Positions 4,669 to 58,983 of a stretch of DNA of 64,000 nucleotides are shown here, piece after piece (positions within the stretch are counted from its first letter, which is position 1; the number at the start of each line of letters is the position of its first letter). The position numbers and the translations under genes were made by a program. Below the pieces are notes generated by a model. That model was given only the letters and a program-made list of their open reading frames with translations, was not told the origin of the DNA and searched no databases. The stretch comes from Raja brachyura (taxonomy: Eukaryota): NCBI GenBank assembly GCA_963514005.1, contig OY740823.1, positions 2,232,001 through 2,296,000 of the forward strand, read 5' to 3'.

Positions 4669-4997
4669 TCAGTGCGGGCAGGCTGACGCCGGGACAGTGT
4701 GGAGCAGAGGCGTGCTAAGCGAGCTGTGGCTCACGCTGCATGAATAGCTCGAGCCCTTGCTCCAGGCGGCGGCGGGGACCCGCAGGTAACTGCTCAGCCT
4801 GTACGTCTGCTCGGCGTCCGCGGACACGGCGCCTGTCGTCACCCCGCTCTCCGTCTCCACGCGGTCCACGGCCCAGCGCACAGCCACCAAGCCCGGCTTG
4901 AAGCTGCTCACCAGGCAGCTGAGAGTGGCCGTGCCCGAGCCGGTTTCCTCCGGGGAGGGAGGGAGAAGGAGAAGCGAGGGCTTCCGAGACTCGCTAC
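4669..4997 (-). CDS. Ig light chain constant exon (type I / sigma-cart, NS5-like)
   Basis: Polypyrimidine tract and CAG acceptor (5000-4998), phase 1; (S)SESRKPSLLLLPPSPEETGSGTATLSCLVSSFKPGLVAVRWAVD...YRLSSYLRVPAAAWSKGSSYSCSVSHSSL...ASACPH*; both C1-set Cys, the Trp and the interchain Cys near the C-terminus are present. Confidence 0.95.
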
Positions 4998-5394
4998 CTG
5001 TGTGGGGGAAAGGAGGCAGTGTTAGTTGATGGAGACCGCCACATTCTGACCCCCAACGCGAAACAACTCGGCAGCAGAAATTAGCACCGACCGTCGACGA
5101 ATCAGACGTGGGTGAAATGTGGGGCGCAGGGTGCGGCCAATCAGCCCATCAAGTCGTGTGGACTGGTCCAGATCAATCCCCGCTGCCGCCTTTCTGCCAA
5201 CCTCCACTGCCCTGTCAGGCCGAGAGCACTTACTCAGTGTCACATCACCCTGACAACGGCCCCCGTCCCCCCACCAGGCACCGCTCAACGGTTTGTCCTG
5301 CTGACCAGGTGATCCTTGCAGAGTGCTACAATTTTCCAGCTCTGAAATTCGTTTGACCGTGAATTTGAAAAATGTTACTTTCTTAACCGCGTCG

Positions 5395-6357: not shown

Positions 6358-6371
6358 AGAATGAATATCGA

Positions 6372-6794
6372 GGGTTACTTTACAAAAAGCTGGAGAAACT
6401 CAGCGGGTGCAGCAGCATCTAAGGAGCGAAGGAGATAGGCGACGTTTCGGGTCGAGACCCTTCTTCAGACTGGTCAGGGATCAGGGAAACACTGTCCTCG
6501 TAGGGAGGAGGAGAACTTCTTCAAAGTAGGCATACCTTGAGGAGATATCGCAGTGGAGTAGACAAACTGTTAAAGAAGGAACTGCAGATGCTGGAGAATC
6601 GAGGGTTACACAAAAAGCTGGAGAAACTCAGCGGGTGCAGCAGCATCTAAGGAGCGAAGGAGATAGGCGACGTTTCGGAAGAAGGGTCTCGACCCGAAAC
6701 GTCGCCTGTCTCCTTCGCTCCTCAGGTGCTGCTGCACCCGCTGAGTTTCTCCAGCTTTTTGTGTAACTCATCGATTCTCCAGCCTCTGCAGTTC
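6372..6794 (-). mobile_element. Non-autonomous Penelope-derived fold-back element (pLTR, short internal piece, pLTR, plus inverted pLTR)
   Basis: Two direct pLTR copies on the minus strand plus an inverted copy forming a hairpin with arms of about 100 bp (6578-6678 vs 6694-6796); flanked by CTAGAATGAATATCGA (6356-6371) and CTAGAATAAATATCGA (6795-6810). Confidence 0.85.
6441..6468 (-). ncRNA. Minimal type I hammerhead ribozyme core (PLE type)
   Basis: CUGAAGA-A-GGGU-CUCG-ACCC-GAAACGUC: intact core, helix II and palindromic ACGU helix III; helix I only about 2 bp. Confidence 0.7.
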
Positions 6795-6808
6795 CTAGAA
6801 TAAATATC

Positions 6809-6958
6809 GACCCTGATTCGATCCTAATCTCGGGCATTAGGTTTGCGGTTTACACGTTCCACTAATGACCGCGTGGGGTTTCTCTGCGTGCTGTGGTGTC
6901 CTCTAACATCCCAAATAATTGCGGGTTTGTCGGTTAATTGGCCCAATATAAATTGCCG
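6809..6958 (+). mobile_element. Partial SINE, inverted relative to the 5460-5620 part of the minus-strand copy
   Basis: Shares the unusual CTAATCTCGGG..TTTGCGGTTT variant with the 5395-5665 copy; bounded by CTAGAATAAAT at 6795-6805 and 6959-6969. Confidence 0.7.
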
Positions 6959-7086
6959 CTAGAATAAATGCTCACCTTAGAGTGCACCGCGCACAACCGG
7001 TGCTTGAAGCTGACGGATGGAGCCTACGCAGGGGTATTAGAGCGACCGTAATAGGAATTGATGGAAACTGAACGAGGGAAACTTAC

Positions 7087-7446
7087 TCTTTATATCGAGG
7101 ATCGTTCCCCCGCCGAAGTAATATACCGCATCTGTTTCCCTCACGGCACAGAAATAGACGGCTGCGTCTCTGGGCTCCAGCCTGTCGATGATCAGGACAT
7201 AACTGTTGGCGGAGCTATCTCTGGACGGCATGAATCGTTCAGTGATCCCGGTCGCTCTATTAATGTTACCAGCAGCCCAATGCACCAGCACCAACTCCGG
7301 TCTCTCCGCGGGCCGCTGTCGGTACCACTGCCCGCCGTAGTTTCCAACGTTTAAGTTCTGCACCCGACACTCCAAGCGGGCGGTCTGCCCCGCGGAGACA
7401 GGGTCGGCCATTGGACTCTGAAGCAGGACTGGAACCGCCGAGAGAC
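7087..7446 (-). CDS. Ig light chain variable exon, germline-joined V-J
   Basis: AG acceptor at 7448-7447, 360-nt phase1/phase1 exon, donor GTAAGT at 7086-7081; ARLECRV...QWYRQRP...DAAVYFC-AVRETDAVYY-FGGGTILDIK; no RSS or intervening DNA between V and J. Confidence 0.95.
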
Positions 7447-7594
7447 CTTCAACAAAACACAATAGGACAACAGGGTGACTTGGAGCCAACTGAAGGCTGA
7501 ACAACCGCTAAATACGCGCAGGGCACTGGCGACGGTGGAGATTTTAACAAATGTCGCTGCGGAAAATCAGTCCGTGAACCAACCGGAGCCTCAC

Positions 7595-20910: not shown

Positions 20911-21504
20911 ATGTAGGTGGAATATAGTTGGCTGGGACGGGGGGTGCGGGCTGCTGTTCAGGTTGGGAGATGGGGAGCAATATCGATGGAACAATTCAAT
21001 GACGAATTGAGACATTTTTCTTTCTCCCTCAGTGTCATCGGGGAAATCAGACGCGGGTCATTCCAGTGAGCGCCACGTTGGCGAATGTTCACGAGGCCGC
21101 CAGCCGTGTGTGTGACAGGCACTGATGCAGCTGCGCTCTTGTCATCTCCCCGAGGGACCCTGTCGGTGTTGGCGCGGGCTTTATTTAGCTGTCCTTACAC
21201 AAATCCATGCTGTTTCTGGTTGTTTGTGTAGCGAGGCAGGTGTTGCGGTCGCTCGGACCCTGCGAGGGAGGAGGGAGAGACGGGGCAGCATTTACAACAA
21301 CATGTTAATATTCAGAAACTGGAAGACATTGAACCTAAATTTGAATCCTTGAGAAATAATTCTCATAAATTACAATTTCAAGCCATGAACTTCAATATTT
21401 TATTTGATAATAAGTTGATTTGATAATATTTTATGATAAAAGGGATCGCTGCGGGGGAGAGGGAGAAAGCGGCGAGTTTATCAGCTGCAACTGGTCCAAA
21501 ACGC

Positions 21505-22030
21505 CGCAGCGAGACTCCTGACGGGCACCCGAAAAAGGGACCACATCACCCCGATCCTGGCCTCTCTACACTGGCTCCCTGTGCGGTTCCGAATTACCTT
21601 CGAGACCCTCCTCTTTGTCTACAAAGCCCTCAATGGGCTTGCCCCCACCTACATTAAAAGTCTTCTCACCCACTACACCACCTCCAGATTCTTCGGATCA
21701 GCCGACTTGGGGTTGCTGAATGTCCCGCAGTCGAGGCAGAAGCTCAGGGGCGACCGATCGCGCCTTTGTGGTCGCAGCTCATAGACTGTGGAACAGCATC
21801 CCCCTCCCCATTAGAACTGCCCCCTCCATCGACTCCTTTAAGTCTAGTATAAAAATGTATCTGTTCTCCCAAGCCGTTCCTGATGTCCTCTGAGTGAGGG
21901 CTATTTGTATATATGTACGTAGCGTGCTTGTGTATACTACTCTTATAACAAATATAAAGCACTTTGGTCAACGAGAGTTGTTTTTTAAATCTGCTACATA
22001 AATAAATGTGACTAGACTTGACTTGACTTA
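21505..22030 (+). mobile_element. L2-clade LINE 3' fragment
   Basis: HITPILASLHWLPVRFRI..LLFVYKALNGLAPTYI; (GACTT)n tail. Confidence 0.85.
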
Positions 22031-22562
22031 ACCATATAACAATTACAGCACGGAAACAGGCCCTCTCGGCCCTTCCAGTCCGTGCCGACCATTTAATTTC
22101 CCCTAGTCCCATCTACCTGCACTCAGACCATACGCCTCCATTCCCTTCCCGTCCATATACATATCCATTTTACTTTTAAATGTTGAAATCGATCCTGCCT
22201 CCACCACTTGTGCAGGAAGATCATTCCACACAGCCACCACTCTCTGAGTAAAGAAGTTCCCCCTCATGTTACCCCTAAACTTATGTCCCTTAATTCCCAT
22301 GTCATGCCCTCTTGTTTGAATCTTCCCTACCCTCAATGGGAAAAGCTTATCCACGTCAACTCTATCTATCCCTTTCATCATTTTAAAGACCTCAATCAAG
22401 TCCCCCCTTAACCTTCTGCGCTCCAAAGAATAAAGGCCTAACTTGTTCAACCTTTCTCTGTAACTTAGTTGCTGGAACCCAGGCAACATTCTAGTAAATC
22501 TCCTCTGTACTCTCTCTATTTTGTCGACATTCTTCCTATAATTAGGTGACCAAAATTGTACA
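22030..22562 (-). mobile_element. CR1 3' fragment (GTTATATG-tail subfamily)
   Basis: ORF 22103..22489 is closely similar to the 2111..2782 product. Confidence 0.9.
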
Positions 22563-22934
22563 CTTGTATTAAATATATAATATTCGGGGGAGCGGGGACT
22601 GGAATCATCACCGGGGAAATATCAGGATATCATAACGACCCGGGACCTCACCCACACACTCCGCTCTTAAAGATGGACATTGCTGTGATCCGAGGGTCAA
22701 TGCTCCATTCTCATACACAGCAGGGAACAACAACTTCCGGCCTGTTGCTCCGTTTACTACAATCACGGGTGGCTTTTCCCACAGCGCTGCCTTGCACAAT
22801 GCCCAGACACCCAGATGCCTTAGTGCCGAAGTATTGATCACCCCCCCCCCCCCCCCCCAGCCTGGAACAGAAACAGTCAAAGTCCACCCGCCCAGCTGAT
22901 CCAGAGTAAATTGTCATTCATAATCATTAACGAC

Positions 22935-23590
22935 AGCGGTACAATTAGGCCATTCGGCCCATAAAGTCTACTCCGCCATTTAATGGTGGCTGATCTAACC
23001 CCATTCTCCTGCCTTCTCACCAATACCTCGCACACCCGTACTAATTAAGAATCTATCTATCTCTTCCTTAAATATATCCACTGACATTGCCTCCACAGCC
23101 TCCTGCGGCAAATAATTCCACAGATTAACCTCTCTAAAGAAATTCTTCCTCATCTCCTTCCTACAAGTACGTCCTTTAATTTTGATGCTTTGAGTTCTAG
23201 TCGTTGATTCTCGCAATAGAGGAAATATCCTCTTCACATCACCCTATCCAAGTCATTCACTATTCTGTACGTCCCAATGTTGTCCCCCAACCCCCTCACA
23301 TTTCTAAACTCCAGCCAATATAGGCCCAGTACCGTCAAACGCTCACAATATGTTAACCTACGCATTCCTGGGATCAATATTGTAAACCTCCTCTGGACCA
23401 TCTCCAGAGCTAGCTCATCTTTCCTCAGATATGTTGCCCAAAATTGCTCACAATATTCTAAATACGCCCTGAACAACGCCTTATAGAGCCTGTTTTTGTA
23501 GGTAAGCTCTTGAGCAATAAATGCTTTCTTTACGTCTGATTCGTCTTGCAGATTAAGTTTTTGGGAAACCTGCATCAGCACTCTCAAATT
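22935..23590 (-). mobile_element. CR1 3' fragment
   Basis: ORFs 23234..23587 and 22995..23237 are the CR1 ORF2 C-terminus. Confidence 0.85.
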
Positions 23591-23767
23591 GTTAGCATAT
23601 CAAAAAATATTACAGGTTCTTAATCAGCTGTGCTGGTGGGCCGAGGAATGCCTAATGGTGATTAATGCACATAAGTGAGAGATGTATTTCGCAAATTCAA
23701 ACTCGGGCAGCACATTCACAACGAATGGCAGGGCCCCACGTAGCGTTGGGATCTAGGAGTACAGGTA

Positions 23768-24432
23768 AAATGTGTGGCAATGAACTGCAGATGCTGGTTT
23801 AAACCAAAGATAGGCACAGAAAGTTGGAGTAACTCTGCGGGGAAGGCAGCATCTCTGGACAGAAGCATTGGGTGACTTTCTGGTTGAGACCCTTCCTCAG
23901 ACTAGTTCGGGTCAAGGGAAACGAGAGATAGAGACGATGATGTGGGGAGAAAAAGAACGATGAATAAAATAAAATGAAAACAGGCCATGAAGGAAACGGG
24001 CCACAGTTAGCTGTTTGTTGGGTGAAACCGAGAAGCTAGTGCGTCTTGGGTGGGGGAGATATAGGAAGAGAGAGAATGATGGGGCTACACGAAGATTGGG
24101 AATCGATATTGTAAACTGCCCAAGCGAAATATGAGATTCTGTTCCTCCAATTTGCGTTTAGCTTCACTCTGGCAATGGAGGAGACCTGGGAGAGAACGGT
24201 CGTGTTCACCCAACAAAGAGCTAACAAAGGCCTGTTTCCTTTATCGTCGTTACTTTTTTGCATATATTTCATTAATTGTATTTTATCTCTCGACATCATT
24301 CCCTTTGTCTCTCGTTTTCCTTACCCTTAACCAGTCTGAAGGAGGGTCTGGACCCGAAACGTCCCCATTCCTTCTCTGCAGAGATACTGCCTATTCCGCT
24401 GAGTTACTCCAGCTTGTGTGTCTATCTTGGGA
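23768..24432 (-). mobile_element. Penelope-derived fold-back element (pLTR and GIY-YIG C-terminal remnant, plus inverted pLTR)
   Basis: Arms at about 23805-24030 and 24202-24430 are inverted; degenerate hammerhead cores at about 23873-23900 (-) and 24336-24363 (+); 8-bp TSD TACAGGTA at 23760-23767 and 24433-24440 inside an older CR1. Confidence 0.8.
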
Positions 24433-25369
24433 TACAGGTACACTGTTCCCTGAAAGTGTTACGCTAAGACAGGGTGGTTTAAAAAGGCCTTTTGTGCATT
24501 CGCCTTGGTGAGGCTGCATTTGGAGTATTGTGTGCACAAGTGATCATGTTGCTATAGAATGGTATGAAAATCATGAAGGAAACAGATGGACTAGAATCAC
24601 TGTGCTTTTTACAAGAGGGTTGTGATCAAAACCAAATGTTTGATGTGAGATGGGCAAGATTTAGAAATAACTTGAGGGTGAAATTTTGAACTCAATGAGT
24701 GGTAGGTATATGGAGCGAGCCGCCAGAGGAGATGGTGAAGGCAGATATAACAACAACATTAATAAGATACTTGGGCAGGTACATCGTCAGGGAATGTTCA
24801 TAGGGATATGGCCCAAACGTAGTTAGCATGGACGAGTTTTGCGTGGTTCCCAGTGGTATGACTATGACACTATGACGGAGCATCTATGGGCCTCTGGAGG
24901 AGAGAGTGTCAGGATCTACAATCTCAGAATGAAGGAAGTTCGTCGGTTTAATTCCCCATTCTCTCCGATCTTTAGCTTTCCCAGCTAAAGAAAACAGACT
25001 CCCTGCGTTCACTTTGTGGTCCAACCAATGTGTTGTCATTCAACATCATTGCCTCTTATCGTCCTCAGCTTCAACGAATTAGGCGGCCCCCTTTCAATCT
25101 ATTCGCATGGGACACCCCTCCTATTACAAGAACGCAGGCCCGGCTACGCCGCCCAATACTGTTGACTGCGGAAGGAGAATGAAGACTAAAGAATTGTACA
25201 TATGAAACAAGACCCCAGCCCTCTTGCTACCTGACCTCCTTCTCCAATAGCTTGAAGATAACCTAAATTAGCATCACCTGTGTATGAGGTTTATTTCGTT
25301 CATGCGTCAGCACAGGATAACTACGTATGTGAACAGTCAATGAAAACCGTCACCCATATGCTGTATGCT

Positions 25370-26200
25370 ACATGCTATATTGTACATAAATGTGAGGTTA
25401 TCCACTTTGGTGGCAAAAATAGGAAAACAGACTATTATCTAAATGGATGCCGATTAGGAAAAGGGGAGATGCAGCGCGACCTGGGTGTCATGGTACATCA
25501 GTCATTGAAAGTAGGCATGCAGGTGCAGCAGGCAGTGAAGAAAGCGAATGGTATGTTAGCTTTCATAGCAAAAGGATTTGAGTATAGAAGCAGGGAGGTT
25601 CGACTTCAGTTGTATAGGGTCTTGGTGAGACCACACCTGGAGTATTGCGTACAGTTCTGGTCTCCAAATCTGAGGAAGGACATTATTGCCATAGAGGGAG
25701 TGCAGAGAAGGTTCACCAGACTGATACCTGGGATGTCAGGACTGTCTTATGAACAAAGACTGCATAGACTCGGTTTATACTCTCTAGAATTTAGGAGATT
25801 GAGAGGGGATCTTATAGAAACTTACAAAAGTCTTAAGGGGTTGGACAGGCTAGATGCAGGAAGATTGTTCCCGATGTTGGGGAGGTCCAGGACAAGGGGT
25901 CACAGCTTAAGGATGAGGGGGAAATCCTTTAGGACCGAGATGAGAAGGACTTTTTTCACACAGAGAGTGGTGGGTCTCTGGAACCCTCTGCCACAGAGGG
26001 TAGTTGAGGCCAGTTCATTGGCTATATTTAAGAAGAAGTTAGATGTGGCCCTTGTGGCTAAGGGGATCAGAGGGTATGGAGAGAAGGCAGGTACGGGATA
26101 CTGAGTTGCATGATCAGCCATGATCATATTGAATGGCGGTGCAGGCTCGAAGGGCCGAATAGCCTACTCCTGCACCTAATTTCTATGTTTCTATGTTTCT
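25370..26200 (+). mobile_element. CR1 3' fragment, open frame
   Basis: KCEVIHFG...GEKAGTGY* and (TTTCTATG)n tail; its 3' end is the donor for the 27709-28850 capture. Confidence 0.92.
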
Positions 26201-27271
26201 ACATGCTATATACACATATAGAGCTACGCAACATGGAATCAGACCTCTCTTGTCCATGTTGACCAGTTTGGCAAATTAGGCTCAAATCATTTACCAGAAT
26301 TCGACATGTGGCCTTTTAATTCCTTCCGATCCAAATATCTATCCAAATGCTTTTTAAGCAACCTAATTGTATCCGTCTCTGCTCGTTCATCTGGCAGCCT
26401 ATTCCAGATATGCAAAATGAACCTTTTCTATACATGCACGGCCAAATATTTTATAAATGTTGTTATCGTACATAATACAACTATTTCCTCTGGCAGCTCA
26501 TTTATACCAGTCTATGTGAATACGCTGCCTCTTAGATTCCTCTAAAATGTTTCCCGTCGCACCTTTAACACTTTCTTATAGTTTCTAATTAGCCCTACCC
26601 TGGGTAAATTAATGTGCATTCACACTATCTATTCTCCTCATGATTTTTTACACCTTTTGTAAATCAGCCCTCAGCCAGCTGTCCTAAAAAACATAGTCGT
26701 TGCATGACAAATCTCTTTCTCTATAGCACAGGCAGTCAAGGTCTGGCAACACCCTAGAAAATCTTCTCTGCAAACTTACCATCGTAACGGCATATTTTCT
26801 ATCGGCGTGTTACTGTGTTAATAGGCCTATTGTTCTGGGGTGATCTTATAGAGGTGTACAAAATCATGAGCGGATAGATGCACAGAGTCTTTTGATCAGA
26901 GTAGGGAAATCGAGGACCAGAGGACATAGGTTCGAGGTGAAGGAGAAAATATTTAATTGGAATTCATGGGGTAACATGAATTCATGGGGTAACAAAGGGA
27001 GTTGGGTGTATGAAAGAAGCTGCAAGAGGAGGCAGTTGATGTTGGGCCAATCCCATCGTTTGAACAAATAGATAGACAGGTACATGGATGGGACAGGTTT
27101 GCAAGGATATGGACCATTCGCAGGCAGGTGGGACTAGTGTGGCTGGGACATGTTGGCCGTGGTGGACAAGTTGGGCCGAAGGCCCTGTTTCCACACTGTC
27201 ACTCTATGACACTATGACACTAGGGGAAGGGGGAGGAATCCTTTGCAGTGACAGAGACCCTTCAACAACTT

Positions 27272-27439
27272 GTGTAGGGAGCAATTGAGGATGCAGGAGT
27301 AAACCAAAGATAGACATAAAAATGCTGGAGTCAGGGAGCAATTCTGGACAAAAGGAATAGGGGACGTTTCGGGTCGTGCCCCTTCTTCAGAAGAGATGCT
27401 GCCGGACCCGCTGAGCTACTCGAGCATTTTGTGTCTGTC
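27272..27439 (-). mobile_element. Miniature Penelope fold-back element
   Basis: pLTR reverse complement ending in CTTCTTCAG (core 27363-27390) joined to an inverted pLTR tail; imperfect 13-bp TSD CCTTCAACAACTT / CCCTCAACATCTT. Confidence 0.7.
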
Positions 27440-27812
27440 CCCTCAACATCTTCACCGACACAGACGAACCGATCCGCCACTGGCTGCCCTGTACCTTGCA
27501 TTGCACGAATAAGTGCAGCTCATCAATCAGTCCATTGGTTGAAAGCGTTTTTGGATCTGTCTGAAATGGCGATGGGCGGTATAAAAATGTAACGATTCAC
27601 CTCTGCGCTACGAACCTGCTGTTTTGCGTCACCTCCCAAATGTTCATTGAGTGCTCTCTATTGCCACCACGTGGGCAATGGTGTAACACGATATCTGGCC
27701 ACATTACGTTGTTTTAAAGAAGGAACTGCAGATGCTGGAGAATCGAGGGTTACACAAAAAGCTGGAGAAACTCAGCGGGTGCAGCAGCATCTAAGGAGTG
27801 AAGGAGATAGGC

Positions 27813-27840
27813 GACGTTTCGGGTCGAGACCCTTCTTCAG
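27813..27840 (-). ncRNA. Minimal hammerhead core
   Basis: CUGAAGAAGGGUCUCGACCCGAAACGUC intact; the 5' strand of helix I is replaced by captured DNA. Confidence 0.65.
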
Positions 27841-28102
27841 GGAAGGCAGGTACGGGATACTGAGTTGCATGATCAGCCATGATCATATTGAATGGCGGTG
27901 CAGGCTCGAAGGGCCGAATAGCCTACTCCTGCACCTAATTTCTATGTTTCTATGTTTCTACATGCTATATACACATATAGAGCTACGCAACATGGAATCA
28001 GACCTCTCTTGTCCATGTTGACCAGTTTGGCAAATTAGGTTACACAAAAAGCTGGAGAAACTCAGCGGGTGCAGCAGCATCTAAGGAGTGAAGGAGATAG
28101 GC

Positions 28103-28130
28103 GACGTTTCGGGTCGAGACCCTTCTTCAG
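28103..28130 (-). ncRNA. Minimal hammerhead core (tandem copy, 290 nt from the previous one)
   Basis: Identical core sequence. Confidence 0.65.
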
Positions 28131-28756
28131 AGAAGGCAGGTACGGGATACTGAGTTGCATGATCAGCCATGATCATATTGAATGGCGGTGCAGGCTCGAA
28201 GGGCCGAATAGCCTACTCCTGCACCTAATTTCTATGTTTCTATGTTTCTACATGCTATATACACATATAGAGCTACGCAACATGGAATCAGACCTCTCTT
28301 GTCCATGTTGACCAGTTTGGCAAATTAGGCTCAAATCATTTACCAGAATTCGACATGTGGCCTTTTAATTCCTTCCGATCCAAATATCTATCCAAATGCT
28401 TTTTAAGCAACCTAATTGTATCCGTCTCTGCTCGTTCATCTGGCAGCCTATTCCAGATATGCAAAATGAACCTTTTCTATACATGCACGCCCAAATATTT
28501 TATAAATGTTGTTATCGTACATAACACAACTATTTCCTCTGGCAGCTCATTTATACCCGTCTATGTGAATACGCTGCCTCTTAGATTCCTCTAAAATGTT
28601 TCCCGTCGCACCTTTAACACTTTCTTATAGTTTCTAATTAGCCCTACCCTGGGTAAATTAATGTGCATTCACACTATCTATTCTCCTCATGATTTTTTAC
28701 CCCTTTTGTAAATCAGCCCTCAGCCAGCTGTCCTAAAAAACATAGTCGTTGCATGA

Positions 28757-28784
28757 CTGAAGAAGGGTCTCGACCCGAAACGTC
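28757..28784 (+). ncRNA. Minimal hammerhead core (inverted arm)
   Basis: Identical core sequence on the plus strand. Confidence 0.65.
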
Positions 28785-29215
28785 GCCTATCTCCTTCACT
28801 CCTTAGATGCTGCTGCACCCGCTGAGTTTCTCCAGCTTTTTGTGTAACCCTCTGGCCACATTACGCTTGGTTCCTGCAGCCAGGACATGAGAACATGGAA
28901 TAAATGAAAACACTGCCTTCATAAACTCGTCTGCAAAATTGTTTGTTAGGAAGATGTGCAAGTCGCTCTTGATTTGAATGATGGTGCATAGAATAAAACA
29001 GTGTCAGCCTGTGTTGGTCATTTTTACTTCTCTTCTGAGTTCAGGTAAATACTTATTACCAATGTATTTAAAAATAAAAATACCCAAAGTGCTGGAGTAA
29101 TTCAGCGGGTCAGAATGCTGGAGAACATGGACAGGCAACGTTTCGGGTTGGGATCCTTGGGTTGCTTTCTAACATCTCAAATTATCGTGTTACCTCCAAA
29201 GTCAAGGTACCTATA

Positions 29216-30832
29216 CAGTGGCTTGCAAACGTTTTCATACCCCTTGAACCTTTCCACATTTTGTCACGTTACAACCACAAACGTAAATGTATTTTATTGG
29301 GATTTTATGTGATAGACCAACACAAAGTGGTGCATAATTGTGAAGTGGAAGGAAAATTATCCATGGTTTCCAAATTTTATTACAAATACAAAACTGAAAA
29401 GTGTGGCGTGCAAAAGTATTCAGCCCCCCTCAGTCACTACTTTGTAGAACCACCTTTCGCTGCTTTTGCAGCTGCAAGTCTTTTGTGATATGTCTGTACC
29501 AGCTTTGCACATCTAGAGACAGAAATGTTTGCCCATTCTTCTTTGCAAAATAGCTCAAGCTCAGTCAGATTGGATGGATAGCGTCTGTGAACAACAATTC
29601 TCAAGTCATGCCAGAGATTCTCAATTGGATTTAGGTCTGGACTTTGACTGGGCCATTCTAACACATGAATATGCTTTGATCTAAACCATTCAATTGTAGC
29701 TCTGGCTATATGTTTTGGGTCGTTGTCCTTCTGGAAGGTGAACCTCCGCCCCAGTCTCAAGTCCTTTGCAGACTCTAACAGGGTTTCTTCCAAGATTGCC
29801 CTGTATTTGGCTCCATCCATCTTCCCATCAACTCTGACCAGCTTCACTGTCCTTGCTGAAGAAAATCATCCCCACAGCACGATGCTGTCACCACCATGTT
29901 TCACAGTGGGGATGGTGTGTTCAGGGTGATGTGCAGTGTTAGTTTTCCGCCACACATAGCGTTTTGCATTTAGGCCAAACACGTCAATTTTGGTCTCATC
30001 AGACCAGAGCACCTTCCTCCACATGTTTGCTGTGTCCCCCACATGGCTTGTGGCAAACTGCAAACGGGACTTCTTATGGCTTTGTTTCAACAATGGCTTT
30101 CTTCTTGCCACTCTTCCATAAAGGCCCGATTTGTGGAGTGCACGACTAATAGTTGTCCTGTGGACAGATTCTCCCACCTGAGCTGTGGATCTCTGCAGCT
30201 CCTCCAGAGTTACCATGGGCCTCTTGGCTGCTTCTCTGATCAATGCTCTCCTTGCCCGCCCTGTCAGTTTAGGTGGACGGCCATGTCTTGGTAGGTTTGC
30301 AGTTGTGCCATACTCTTTTCATTTTCGGATGATGGATTGAACAGTGCTCCGTGAGATGTTCAAAGCTTGGGATATTTTTTTATAACCTCAGCCTAATTTA
30401 AACTTCTCCACAACTTTATCCCTGACCTGTCTGATGTGTTCCTTGGGCTTCATGATGCTGTTTGTTCACTAATGTTCTCTAACAAACCTCTGAGGCCTTC
30501 GCAGAACAGCTGTATTTATACTGAGATTAGATTATACACAAGTGGACTCTATTTACTAACTAGGTGACTTCTGAAGGCAATGGGTTGCACTGGATTTATT
30601 TAGGGGTATCAGAGTAAAGGGGGCTGAATACTTTTCCACGCCACTCTTTTCAGTTTTTTATTTGTAAAAAAAATTGACAAACCATGTATCATTTTCCTTC
30701 CACTTCACAATTCAGCGCCACTTTGTGTTGGTCTATCACATACAATCCCAGCAAAATACATTCACGTTTGTGGTTGTAACGTGACAAAATATGGAAAAGT
30801 TCAAGGGGTGTGAAAACTTTTGCAAGCCACTG
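29216..30832 (-). mobile_element. Full-length Tc1/mariner DNA transposon (IR/DR type, Passport-like)
   Basis: CAGTGGCTTGCAAA termini, TIRs of about 215 bp, TA TSD at 29214-29215 and 30833-30834, 1617 bp long. Confidence 0.95.
29437..30453 (-). pseudogene. Tc1 DD34E transposase with three in-frame stops and no frameshift
   Basis: MKPKEHIRQVRDKVVEKF..GRPPKL..WSDETK..FQKDNDPKH..SPDLNPIENLW..KGGSTK; 339 codons in one frame. Confidence 0.92.
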
Positions 30833-31599
30833 TAGTTGTTTGGAAGGTCCATAATTCATGAACATTTGAGGAATCATTTTTCCAATTGTTTGTGCTTTTA
30901 GTTAATTGTTTTTCTTTCTTTCCAGTTTTTCAAATATGTGCTGTAGGAGGGAATTATATGCTTTACCCGCAGCCTGTATCTGACTTTGAACAGATATGCA
31001 CAGATACAAAATTTAACAGCTCCTCGGTCAGGGGTGTATCTGATGAACCAGTCGGTTTATTAGAGATGCACATCAGCAAATAGTGTGAGCAAGCCCAATC
31101 TGCTTCAATAATCTATAGTAATAGTACAGTTTCATACCCTCATGACACAATTGTTACTCGTAGTTGAAATAAACCATCATTAATCAATGTCTCTGGAACG
31201 TTTTATCTTTGTCTTTCCACAAAGTTAACTTTAACCTTTATCTTCCTGGTGTTTCCAAACTCCAAGAAGGAGCTGTTGAGCTGGAGACAGCAGCTGGATT
31301 AAATCCACAGCCTGGGACCACCAGGTCTCGTGGCTTTGATCACCCACTGAAACAATGGTGGGCTGACAACAGAATGTCAGACCGAAGCAACAAATTTACG
31401 GGCCTCTGATGAGGCTCGTAACAAACCACTAATTCAGTATTCTTTTCGGAGGCCTGATATACAGGCTCGAGCAAGCCAAGATTGGCGGATGCCTGTTTAT
31501 GATACATTGAGGCCTGGGAAGAACAACAAGCCAAGGGACTCGTGACAAAACGTATCCAGACCACCACCTTTTTCAGAGGTCTGTTTACCGTTCCTCCGA

Positions 31600-33421
31600 G
31601 TCCAAGGAGGGATTTAGAGTAGAAGTCTGTGATTTTATGTGGAACCAAATGAGAATTGGCGAGTCTCTCGCTCAACACAATACCTACATAGAAACATAGA
31701 AACATAGAAAATAGGTGCAGGAGGAAGCCATTCGGCCCTTCGACCCAGCACCGCCATTCATTGTGATCATGGCTGGTCGTCCCCAATCAATAACCCGTGC
31801 CTGCCTTCTCCCCATATCCTTTCATTCCACTAGCCCCTAGAGCTCTGTTTATCTCTCTTAAATCCATGCAGTGATTTGGCCTCCACTGCCCTCTGTGGCA
31901 GGGAATTCCACAGGGAATTCCACCTCTTCCACCATACTTCAAATGGAAATTGATAAGTACGATGATGATCCCTTGCAATATGAGACTTTCATAGACCAAG
32001 TTGAGAGAAGAGTGGAGAGGAAAACTACTGATGATGAAGATCGATTTCATTTCATTACACAAGCGGATATCCAATAGGGCTTGTTGCTGGTTTGTAGGAA
32101 GTTGCCTACCGGTGAGTGCTATCGAACGGCGAGAAAATTGGTTGGATAACAGATTGGTATCGAGCACCAGATCGTCAATGCATACATGAAGAAGGCCCAT
32201 GCTTGGACAGTTATCTGGCCGGATGACGCGAAAGCATTGCTGGAGTTTACGATATTTCTTAGACGTTGTTATGGCTCGAGGAAACATCTCAACCACATGC
32301 AAGAAATTAATGTTGTTAGTAATATGACAATTATGACTCCAAAACTGCCCTAGAAACGTTGAGAAAAGTGGACCGATAAAGCAGGCCACATGGAGGAAAA
32401 TGAGAACCGCGAGATCATGCTTCCTGATCCGGTGAACTTCATAGAAAAGGAAGTACATTTCATGTCAAATTTACGTTATGGGCGTATTCAAGATCCTAAA
32501 CCAATCGCAACTGTCAAAGGTTCTACCTTTACAAAAACAAAAGGAAGACCAGGACCTAAGAGAACTAGTTTTACTACCACCGTAATACCTCTGGAAACGA
32601 AAGGCTAAAAGGAAGGAGATACATCTCCTAAGCAAAAATTATTTTGTTTGTTATGTGATGAGGTTGGTCACACCATAAGGTGGTGTCTAAGTTTCAAGAA
32701 GAAGGAATATAAAGAAAAGATTAATTTCTTCAAGGAGAAGGGAATCTGTATTGGATGTTTGAAAAAAGGACACATGGTTAAAGACAGTAGGAGTTCCATA
32801 ACTTGTGATAGGTGCAAGCAGGGTCACCCTGAAGCACTTCACAGTTAGCAGAAGGAGCCGGAGCAAATAGAACAGAAGGAGAAGCCAGCTACTGGTGATG
32901 CTGTCACCTCACCTCAGATAACTGCCCACATTGGGGCCGGGGTTGGAATCTGCATCTTCTCTATCTTACCAGTTCAGGTAAGGAATAGCAAGACGGATAC
33001 AATGTTGCAAACATATGCATTTTTGGATCATGGTAGTTCGGTTACCTTTTGTACAGAACCTATACAGACTATGAAGACCCAAGGGGATGGACCGTTTGCT
33101 GTGAAAACCCTACTAGGATGGGTTATTTATGGCTCCTTGAGAAGGAACATCGAAAGGAATAACGGAAACAACAGAAGAACTATCCTGCCGCTGCTGTTAA
33201 TCACATATCTACTGGTAAAGCAGAAAAGCTATTGATCAAACAATACAAGCATGACTTCAATGAAAGCGCCAGAAAGGAATCTGAAGAAATGTCCAGGGTA
33301 GAGAAAGTTCTTGGATAGTATGAACTAATCAGTAAAGATGATAGCCGGACACTATTGTCTGGGTTTCCTTTTCAAACAAGAGAGTATGAGTCTGCCGAAT
33401 GATCGTCGTATGGCAGAGCAA
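31600..33421 (+). mobile_element. BEL/Pao LTR retrotransposon remnant, gag-protease part
   Basis: EIDKYDDDPLQY, three Cys/His knuckles (CLLC..GH, CIGCLKKGH, CDRCKQGH), protease TYAFLDHGS; 5' boundary uncertain. Confidence 0.8.
31686..31921 (-). mobile_element. CR1 3' end inserted in BEL gag
   Basis: (CATAGAAA)n tail on the plus strand; ACCT on both sides (31682-31685, 31922-31925). Confidence 0.8.
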
Positions 33422-57235: not shown

Positions 57236-58110
57236 ACTTTTTAATTTGATGAGTATTCCAAAACATCTCAAGTTAGATCGTATAAAATAGTGGAATTACA
57301 TGTTTCCTAGTTAAAGCAATGTCACCTGAGGAGTATTGTGGATTTCTCACCTTAAATGAAATTTCGAGCTCCCGAGCATGCGGGCTAGCTCAAAACAAAA
57401 CATTAAGGCGCTGAGAAGTCAATTGTGTCCATCTGCATTTTTTCTAGTAAATCATGAGACCTCAGGTCAAGCAACCTCAGGAGGTGGCGTATCAGAGGCT
57501 TATGGATAGGTAAATGTCCAAGCAGTGAATGGAGGTATTGGATTCCGTGCAGTCAGAGTTTAGTTGACCATGCCATGGAATTCGGTGGGAACATCGGCGG
57601 TCCAAGGGCCTGTTGTTTGTTCTCAATTCTGATACCCTAACACAATCTCGTTTGCCGTCTTATTGCGAGGCTCAAGCGAACAATTTATGTTCCTAGAAGA
57701 AGACTTGGGGCGGCGGAAATTAGGTTTCAACAAAATGTGCGAATCCAACCCAGATGTTTCAAGAGCGCGGGTTTCACTGGGAGCAGGAATCAATGCCGTA
57801 GTCAGTGGAAAAGAGGAGTAACATGCCGGAATATCTTGCTTTAAAAAGTGTCGGGTTATGAATTTTACTGCAGATTTATACTGCAAACGCTTACCTATTA
57901 TTTAATGTTCTCGCACGTTGTGTATTAACGATATCGCTTCCTTTAAACTCGGTTTTGATGTTGAACGAGTATGAAGATCATTTATTGCCGCCTTCATAAA
58001 TTGACCCACCACAGAAGTAATATTATTGATAATGTGACCCGGAACTATGTATTCTGAGTTCCAACTGCGATCAACAGTGATTTCACGTATTCTTTACTTT
58101 GCTTTTGAAG

Positions 58111-58983
58111 TGAATTTAGTGGCGATTGTGATCCTGTCCCGAGGAAAGTGCGGACTTTCCACCTGCACCGCTCGCTACCTGGTGGCCATGGCAGTGGCGC
58201 ACCTACTGAGCGTCATCAGTGACGTCATACTGTGGCGGGTCAGTTACTATTATTTCCCCGGGACTTTCCTGGACATCACCCCCGTGTGCAGTATGGTCCA
58301 TGTGGTGGCTGGTGGAACAAGAGATTGTTCTGTCTGGTTCACTGTCATTTTCACCTTTGATCGATGTGTAGCCATTTGTTACCAGAAGCTGAAAACAACA
58401 TATTGCACGGACAAAAATGCACGTGTGGCTCTGACAATAACGGGGGTTCTGCTCTGTTGCAAAAATGTCCCCATGTACTTTATATTTGAAGCAGGCATAC
58501 TGATTGACAATGTACCCTGGGGCTGTTTGCGGAAATGGAGCATTTATACAGATCCCGTGTGGGTGGGATATGATTGGCTGGCTAATAATGTTGCTCAACT
58601 CTCTGACAGTCCGGCACATTTTAGTGGCCATTCGGGTTCGTAAGGTGCTGAGGGGTCAGAGAAAGCTGGAGAACCGCAGTGACCCAGAGATGGAGAGCAC
58701 AAGGAGGTCCACGGTCCTACTCTTCACCATATCTGGCAGTTTCATCATTCTGTGGTCATTGTCCGTTGTCGATTTCCGTTATTACACAATTGGCGGAACT
58801 GATCCTGGTAATTACAACTATTCCGAATACGTATTTTCACATTGCGGAGCCATTTTGACGGCTTTAAGTTGCTGCACCAATACGTTTATTTATGGGGTTA
58901 CGCAGTCTAAGTTCAGGGAGCAGCTGACCAACGGAGCGAAATATCCGTTCACCTTAATGAAGCAATTGATAAATAAGGAATAA
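58111..58983 (+). pseudogene. GPR139-like rhodopsin-class GPCR, coding exon 2, frameshifted in TM5
   Basis: AG acceptor at 58109-58110; LSRGKCGLS, YLVAMAVAHLL, FTFDRCVAIC, NTFIY; frame change near 58580 with TM5 apparently shortened; TAA at 58981. Confidence 0.85.

Follow-up and report, generated by a model that had tools for sequence, protein, structure and literature searches.

A hammerhead tandem in Raja brachyura lies in the middle of a PLE insertion and could show how retrozyme-like units arise

Retrozymes in the strict sense form multi-copy families, contain canonical type I ribozymes and yield circles in abundance (Cervera and de la Pena, 2020, PMC7229834). Animal retrozymes have been argued to derive from PLE pLTRs (Li, Clavereau and Pollet, 2026, bioRxiv 10.64898/2026.07.22.740005); the accessible portion of that preprint contains no mechanism by which a pLTR would acquire a non-PLE spacer and a first tandem. 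Within PLEs, an architecture of two direct pLTRs and one inverted pLTR around host DNA has already been published (PMC3846280). Biochemical work on PAc established two RT start sites with the tail between them, and uncut RNA is the main substrate there (PMC11167929). Helix I of the hammerhead comprises 2 bp in D. virilis and 4–5 in S. mansoni (PMC4209133).

Here we analysed 64,000 nucleotides of Raja brachyura (assembly GCA_963514005.1, contig OY740823.1, positions 2,232,001 to 2,296,000), called the window and numbered from its first letter. Self-comparison showed that 27748–28037 and 28038–28327 are copies of 290 bp each with a sole difference (27841 G, 28131 A), as a preliminary description made from the letters alone had stated; the repeat extends by 2 further bases (GG) to 28329, and TRF returned period 290, 2.0 copies, score 1157. 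The same description had taken each unit for a PLE pLTR piece joined to captured DNA, and this holds: the arm matches the pLTR of a parent element and the cargo copies the window from 26082 onward. It had overlooked the target duplication, an inverted core, the repeat-tail start of the cargo and the fact that the cargo, a copy of 26082–26278, is extended in unit 2 as far as 26707. A single PLE insertion of 1.14 kb, bounded by a 14-bp target duplication, has the tandem in its middle (Table 1). We consider it likely that this is a single young, non-coding PLE pLTR insertion with two copies of nearby DNA, made by RT during insertion, and not a working retrozyme. Read in this way, the tandem illustrates a possible birth of a retrozyme-like unit and not such a unit at work.

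Table 1. Parts of the insertion and its donor (positions in the window).
Feature	Positions	Strand	Remarks
Left target-site duplication	27695..27708	.	14 bp (15 with the base shared with the arm); identical to 28852-28865
Full pLTR arm, positions 1-131, 94-131 tail included	27710..27840	-	Core 27840-27813; 99% to the L051 pLTR
First cargo, 197 bp	27841..28037	+	Copy of 26082-26278; first base G, donor A
Inner pLTR arm, positions 1-93	28038..28130	-	Core 28130-28103; arm end at the second start site of the family
Second cargo, 626 bp	28131..28756	+	Copy of 26082-26707, 4 mismatches
Inverted pLTR arm, positions 1-94/96	28757..28852	+	Third core 28757-28784
Right target-site duplication	28852..28865	.	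Identical to 27695-27708
Donor of both cargos	26082..26707	+	About 1 kb left of the target; LINE-like repeat 3' tail, then single-copy flank

The insertion contains no ORF sequence, and host DNA fills the space between the arms. The ends of the full arm are those of pLTR copies genome-wide, the joint between inner arm and cargo has GG microhomology, and all 4 mismatches of the second cargo to the donor fall outside its first 197 bp. At the donor, the LINE-like repeat spans 25362–26202 and has many copies within the window; the first ~120 bp of the cargo are the 3' tail of this abundant repeat and the remainder is single-copy flank. We take the repeat to be CR1/HER1; its 280-aa frame gave no match in Pfam. 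The donor has no adjacent young pLTR.

The empty site was found twice. In a paralog on the same contig (L038, 95%) the site is empty and the target sequence is present once, and in sequencing run X1 a 548-nt contig joins 27693 to 28851. The paralog belongs to an inverted segmental duplication in which window 21416–32537 corresponds to L038 (G000:C47:2392000-2401999) at ~95% identity and ~135 kb distance. Of the 4 positions at which cargo and donor differ, the paralog matches the cargo at 2 and the donor at 1, and at 1 it matches neither; few changes are therefore the cargo's own, and the insertion is young. The joints of the insertion were not seen among the pieces listed from 8 of 21 public runs, of which contigs were searched; this absence carries no evidential weight, and the structure therefore rests on one assembly. 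A search for a host gene around the site, with Pfam on 82 of 155 repeat-poor frames, gave no match between 19 and 37 kb. Frames on the minus strand at 29437–30318 presumably resemble a Tc1-type transposase.

The arm of the insertion is 99% identical to the pLTR directly before the 1204-codon ORF of L051, and copies of the family extend upstream into a GIY-YIG-bearing frame. Full parent units are ~4-kb tandems in which frames of 1204–1221 codons start directly after pLTR 130. Pfam matched RVT_1 (E 5e-4) and GIY-YIG (E 2e-3) in the parent frame, both below the Pfam cut-off, and the frames contain a CX4CxxC motif, the linker ahead of the endonuclease, which suggests the Neptune type. Exact matches to a 42-mer from the native core number 14,857 in the genome, and 2,936 exact cores have a non-T base just upstream. 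The parent is an abundant PLE with predicted RT and GIY-YIG domains. The marks of an EN+ PLE are all seen in the insertion, namely the pLTR of an autonomous element, arms of 1–131 and inverted 1–94/96, and a 14-bp target duplication with an empty site.

The 3' ends of the 139 distinct arms in the loci examined are bimodal. They fall at 93–95 in 41 of the 80 short arms (shorter than 120; 40 of 79 without the insertion's own inner arm) and at 120–135 in 54, matching the two RT start sites of PAc (PMC11167929). Unless the arm runs on, 5' ends lie at +1 in 38 and at −4 to −1 in 37 of the 139, in a count seeded on positions 6–25 and hence blind to arms that start at the cleavage site. As L001–L037 were the best BLAST hits and L062–L079 were picked for a non-T base before the core, the junction counts given below are not those of a random sample.

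Each unit has one minus-strand core of the form CUGA-A-GA, helix II, GAAACGUC. The core pattern was matched 7 times in the window and not at all in 100 shuffles; a third, inverted core begins at 28757. Rfam at gathering score gave no match anywhere in the window, so the cores are without library support. Both tandem cores have the boxes of a min-HHR, with CUGANGA and GAAA, an extra base before helix II, palindromic 15.1–16.1 and NUH. Their helix I is 1 bp each (C-G and U.G), plus a C.C mismatch, short of the at least 2 bp of a min-HHR. In native context helix I has 2 bp (U.G, G-C), and older subfamily cores have mostly U-A, G-C. The reduction from 2 bp to 1 bp arises because captured DNA replaces the native CAGU ahead of each core, the very tetranucleotide at which many family arms begin; the near loss of helix I had been correctly noticed in the preliminary description. 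Ahead of the core, the native sequence (L051:3790-3840) consists of a run of pyrimidines closed by CAG and so resembles a 3' splice site or an initiator. Since helix I is where a D. virilis intron has its end (PMC4209133), splicing might by analogy provide another helix I strand in this PLE family.

RT origin is argued because the inner arm ends at 93 and because the sole difference between the units is the junction base. When all microhomology breakpoints of 2 nt or longer were enumerated, 58 of 3583 (1.6%) gave an arm end of 93–95 with the core kept, compared with about half of the other short arms (40 of 79). Non-native junctions of the family have GG after the arm end in 13 of 44 cases with the insertion locus (naive binomial p 2e-6) and 12 of 41 without it, and GGA in 10 of 44 (naive binomial p 1e-9) and 9 of 41, respectively. 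L032 has the identical junction G, followed by a full fold-back arm. At both arm-cargo junctions of the insertion a hairpin CCTTC-T-TCAG-(G/A)-GAAGG can be read, and AGAGAAGG lies in the donor at 26080–26087; together these would account for two landings at one place, for which annealing of the new arm to the existing arm would account as well.

A possible course of events is the following. The endonuclease would nick both strands 14 nt apart, and one nicked end would prime cDNA at pLTR 131, copying as far as the hammerhead start. The cDNA end would then acquire G/GAAGG, by fold-back or untemplated addition, land on the donor octamer, either as DNA or in a local RNA, and copy 197 nt. The 3' end of this copy (ATTAGG) could serve again as primer at the second RT start (93), and the end of the new arm would go back to the same donor place, guided by microhomology or by annealing to the earlier arm, and copy 626 nt. 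The other nick would prime the inverted 94–96 arm, which joins the cargo.

Other loci of the family show related structures. In L031, which has a 14-bp target duplication, the inverted arms enclose 297 bp that stem from the locus's own flank (99.7%). In L027 the inner arm ends at ~92 and is followed by a return to the same body sequence, a short body duplication lying around this arm (L027:2730-2797). The L027 inner arm spans pLTR 29 to ~92 and starts exactly at the hammerhead cleavage site; arm starts at this site were considered as a sign of activity in vivo and set aside, the one starting at position 29 being a single case. Local duplications abut pLTR arms in L035:893-2944 (835 bp, 98.0%) and L066:3505-8001 (968 bp, 98.2%), and these are probably further local captures. 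L016:2968-5748 is a 2.8-kb near-perfect palindrome of two head-to-head truncated PLE copies. L002, L020 and L001 carry PLE insertions that arose independently at one site of the LINE-like repeat tail, with target duplications of 12–13 bp in L002 and L020; the tail is a possible recurrent PLE target, although these loci came from a query containing both repeats. L001 has the joint of the candidate chimeric family discussed below, but appears to have arisen by insertion into the repeat accompanied by a short deletion. Within the window itself, 6360–6810 is a young insertion of the same family with two minus arms ~230 bp apart, the ORF start between them, and then a fold-back arm. It sits between minus-strand exons at 4672–5148 and 7040–7507 with Pfam matches to immunoglobulin C1-set and V-set (E 2e-21 and 7e-14), which form a probable Ig V-C cluster. 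Elsewhere in the window, on the plus strand at 58038–58980, a 7tm_1 receptor match in Pfam is divided over two frames, which points to a probable frameshift in a GPCR gene.

Pairs of direct cores at most 1.5 kb apart occur in 8 of 80 loci, 5 of which were chosen for the pair, and an exact tandem with duplicated cargo occurs in 1 of 80, the insertion itself; a double return is therefore not established as routine. Two further observations count against the RT model. Fold-back arms centred in exactly the insertion's register number 5 in the genome, and the GG microhomology of cargo and arm is also compatible with DNA slippage. The preliminary description had held that a simple microhomology-mediated (GG/AGG) DNA duplication would fit as well. 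A plain duplication after insertion, in which replication slippage or microhomology repair joined the GG of arm 94–95 to the GG ending the 197-bp cargo, would indeed explain the 2-nt joint and the identity of 289/290. We regard it as very unlikely and the earlier suggestion as disfavoured, since a breakpoint at 93–95 is expected in only the 1.6% of microhomology pairs given above, and the sole change would have to fall on the junction base (2 of 580 places) and yield the family-typical G. An arm end at 93 and a common cargo start are both accounted for if two PLE events took place, the first giving arm 131, cargo 626 and inverted arm, and the second priming on ATTAGG inside the cargo, copying arm 93–1 and annealing by 93 bp of homology to the existing arm, so that 290 bp were duplicated. 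PAc favours ATT cut sites (PMC11167929), and multi-arm clusters exist in the family (L058, L059). Annealing to the first arm should nevertheless have carried its G over to unit 2, where the donor A stands; a second target duplication is not seen, and a second strike within 626 bp of a young insertion is required, so that we think two events unlikely. Finally, an assembly error that duplicated 290 bp could explain why the cargo-arm joint was not seen among the pieces listed from the 8 public runs. It is hardly credible, as the two new joints coincide with features typical of the family (arm end at 93, GG junction), for which an assembler has no reason, and the runs checked appear to come from other individuals, one of them with the empty site.

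The preliminary description had proposed a possible nascent retrozyme, with the caveat that the cores may be inactive. That the unit already functions as one, being transcribed, cleaved in dimeric form at both cores and circularised to 290 nt, appears highly improbable. There are two intact cores in direct tandem with a palindromic ACGU, the 93 RT start site is retained by the unit, and the two 290-bp units with one type I core each lie inside the 150–450 bp of animal retrozymes (PMC7229834). The predicted circular monomer folds at z −2.07 against 100 shuffles; as support, this stability was discarded, being no better than that of controls made of the arm with random cargos, which fold equally well in 17% (26/150). 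Against function, the single base pair left in helix I contrasts with a canonical hammerhead (6-bp helix I, loop 1–2 contacts), and it is the G-C pair adjoining the core, present in native and most older subfamily cores, that is lost. The junction is moreover unique in the genome, and an exact-pattern search gave no multi-copy family of the unit: the cargo-arm joint has one occurrence in 2.7 Gb, and the arm-cargo joint occurs at the insertion locus and in one older unrelated copy, exact patterns being such as would miss diverged copies. A chimeric LINE-tail/pLTR family was considered and rejected, as two of its 3 pattern matches are the insertion locus and the third is an older subfamily without cargo. 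Cleavage by minimal PLE hammerheads is weak even in dimers (PMC4209133), the PAc hammerhead depends on its protein (PMC11167929), and among 9 Xenopus dimers 8 failed to cleave (bioRxiv 10.64898/2026.07.22.740005). Folding predictions for read-through RNA of the entire insertion give a pairing probability of 0.999 between the antisense arm and core 27840, and a cost of 65 kcal/mol for the dimer fold; in the tandem alone forcing it takes ~16 kcal/mol, alike in L057, a natural tandem with native junctions. Folding was not retained as a test of inactivity, as it is non-discriminating: helix II probability is ≤0.01 in native context too. Because of the loss of helix I and the antisense arm, the ribozyme motifs are probably inactive, and cleavage and a 290-nt circle are unlikely on this sequence. 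The cargo is absent among the pieces listed for run X16 (contigs; possibly RNA, flagged as probably DNA). Divergent RT-PCR is confounded as a test for circles because the head-to-tail joint is already present in the genomic tandem.

As an element in itself, the insertion is probably a dead end. It has retained its donor, empty site, target duplication and two distinguishable junctions, and therefore suggests a concrete, testable route to retrozymes, by a template jump to local DNA and re-priming at an internal start. We offer, with more doubt than confidence, the wider view that PLE RT could build retrozyme-shaped units in one step and so be a steady source of proto-retrozymes, of which this locus would be a dated, donor-resolved snapshot. 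RT would copy the hammerhead arm, jump to neighbouring host DNA, re-prime at the internal start and return. If this is true, every such event makes a new tandem of hammerhead and host DNA with the RT start site kept; more than 14,000 young arms would supply proto-retrozymes, and the few whose cargo restored helix I could amplify. There is also a warning, in that pipelines which score any two-unit tandem with cores as an active retrozyme will gather by-products of insertion.

Among described systems, the insertion resembles the capture of host DNA by Penelope elements in Adineta vaga (Arkhipova et al., 2013, PMC3846280), in which pLTRs flank host DNA as they do here. It differs in that the donor lies 1 kb from the target, has no adjacent young pLTR and was copied two times beginning at one and the same base, so that an exact tandem resulted; that paper describes mobilisation in trans. 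The literature searched, with subscription journals outside its scope, contained no description of doubled local capture by a PLE. EN+ Neptune-type PLEs (PMC8557442, PMC11167929) have partial tandem and inverted pLTRs and a 30–40 bp tail. They share with the present case a min-hammerhead pLTR, two start sites ~37 nt apart, an inverted 5' arm, and a parent ORF with RT, CX4CxxC linker and C-terminal GIY-YIG; unlike them, the insertion has no ORF sequence and has host DNA between its arms. Like animal non-LTR retrozymes (PMC7229834; bioRxiv 10.64898/2026.07.22.740005), it has units a few hundred bp long that are arranged head to tail and contain a single type I core; a GC content under 50%, a long target duplication and a PLE-derived hammerhead are shared as well. 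In contrast to these it is a single locus of two units, with a minimal core and a 1-bp helix I, inside a PLE insertion with an inverted arm. At the 5' junctions of R2, snap-back and the use of extra template have been described, the cDNA 3' end being extended on itself, nearby DNA or other RNA, and untemplated additions occur there too, as proposed for the insertion (PMC11331408). R2 belongs to a different retrotransposon class, and in the insertion re-priming at an internal PLE start site is proposed to have followed. The insertion behaves as PLE captures are known to do, but for one twist, which provides a candidate route towards units shaped like retrozymes.
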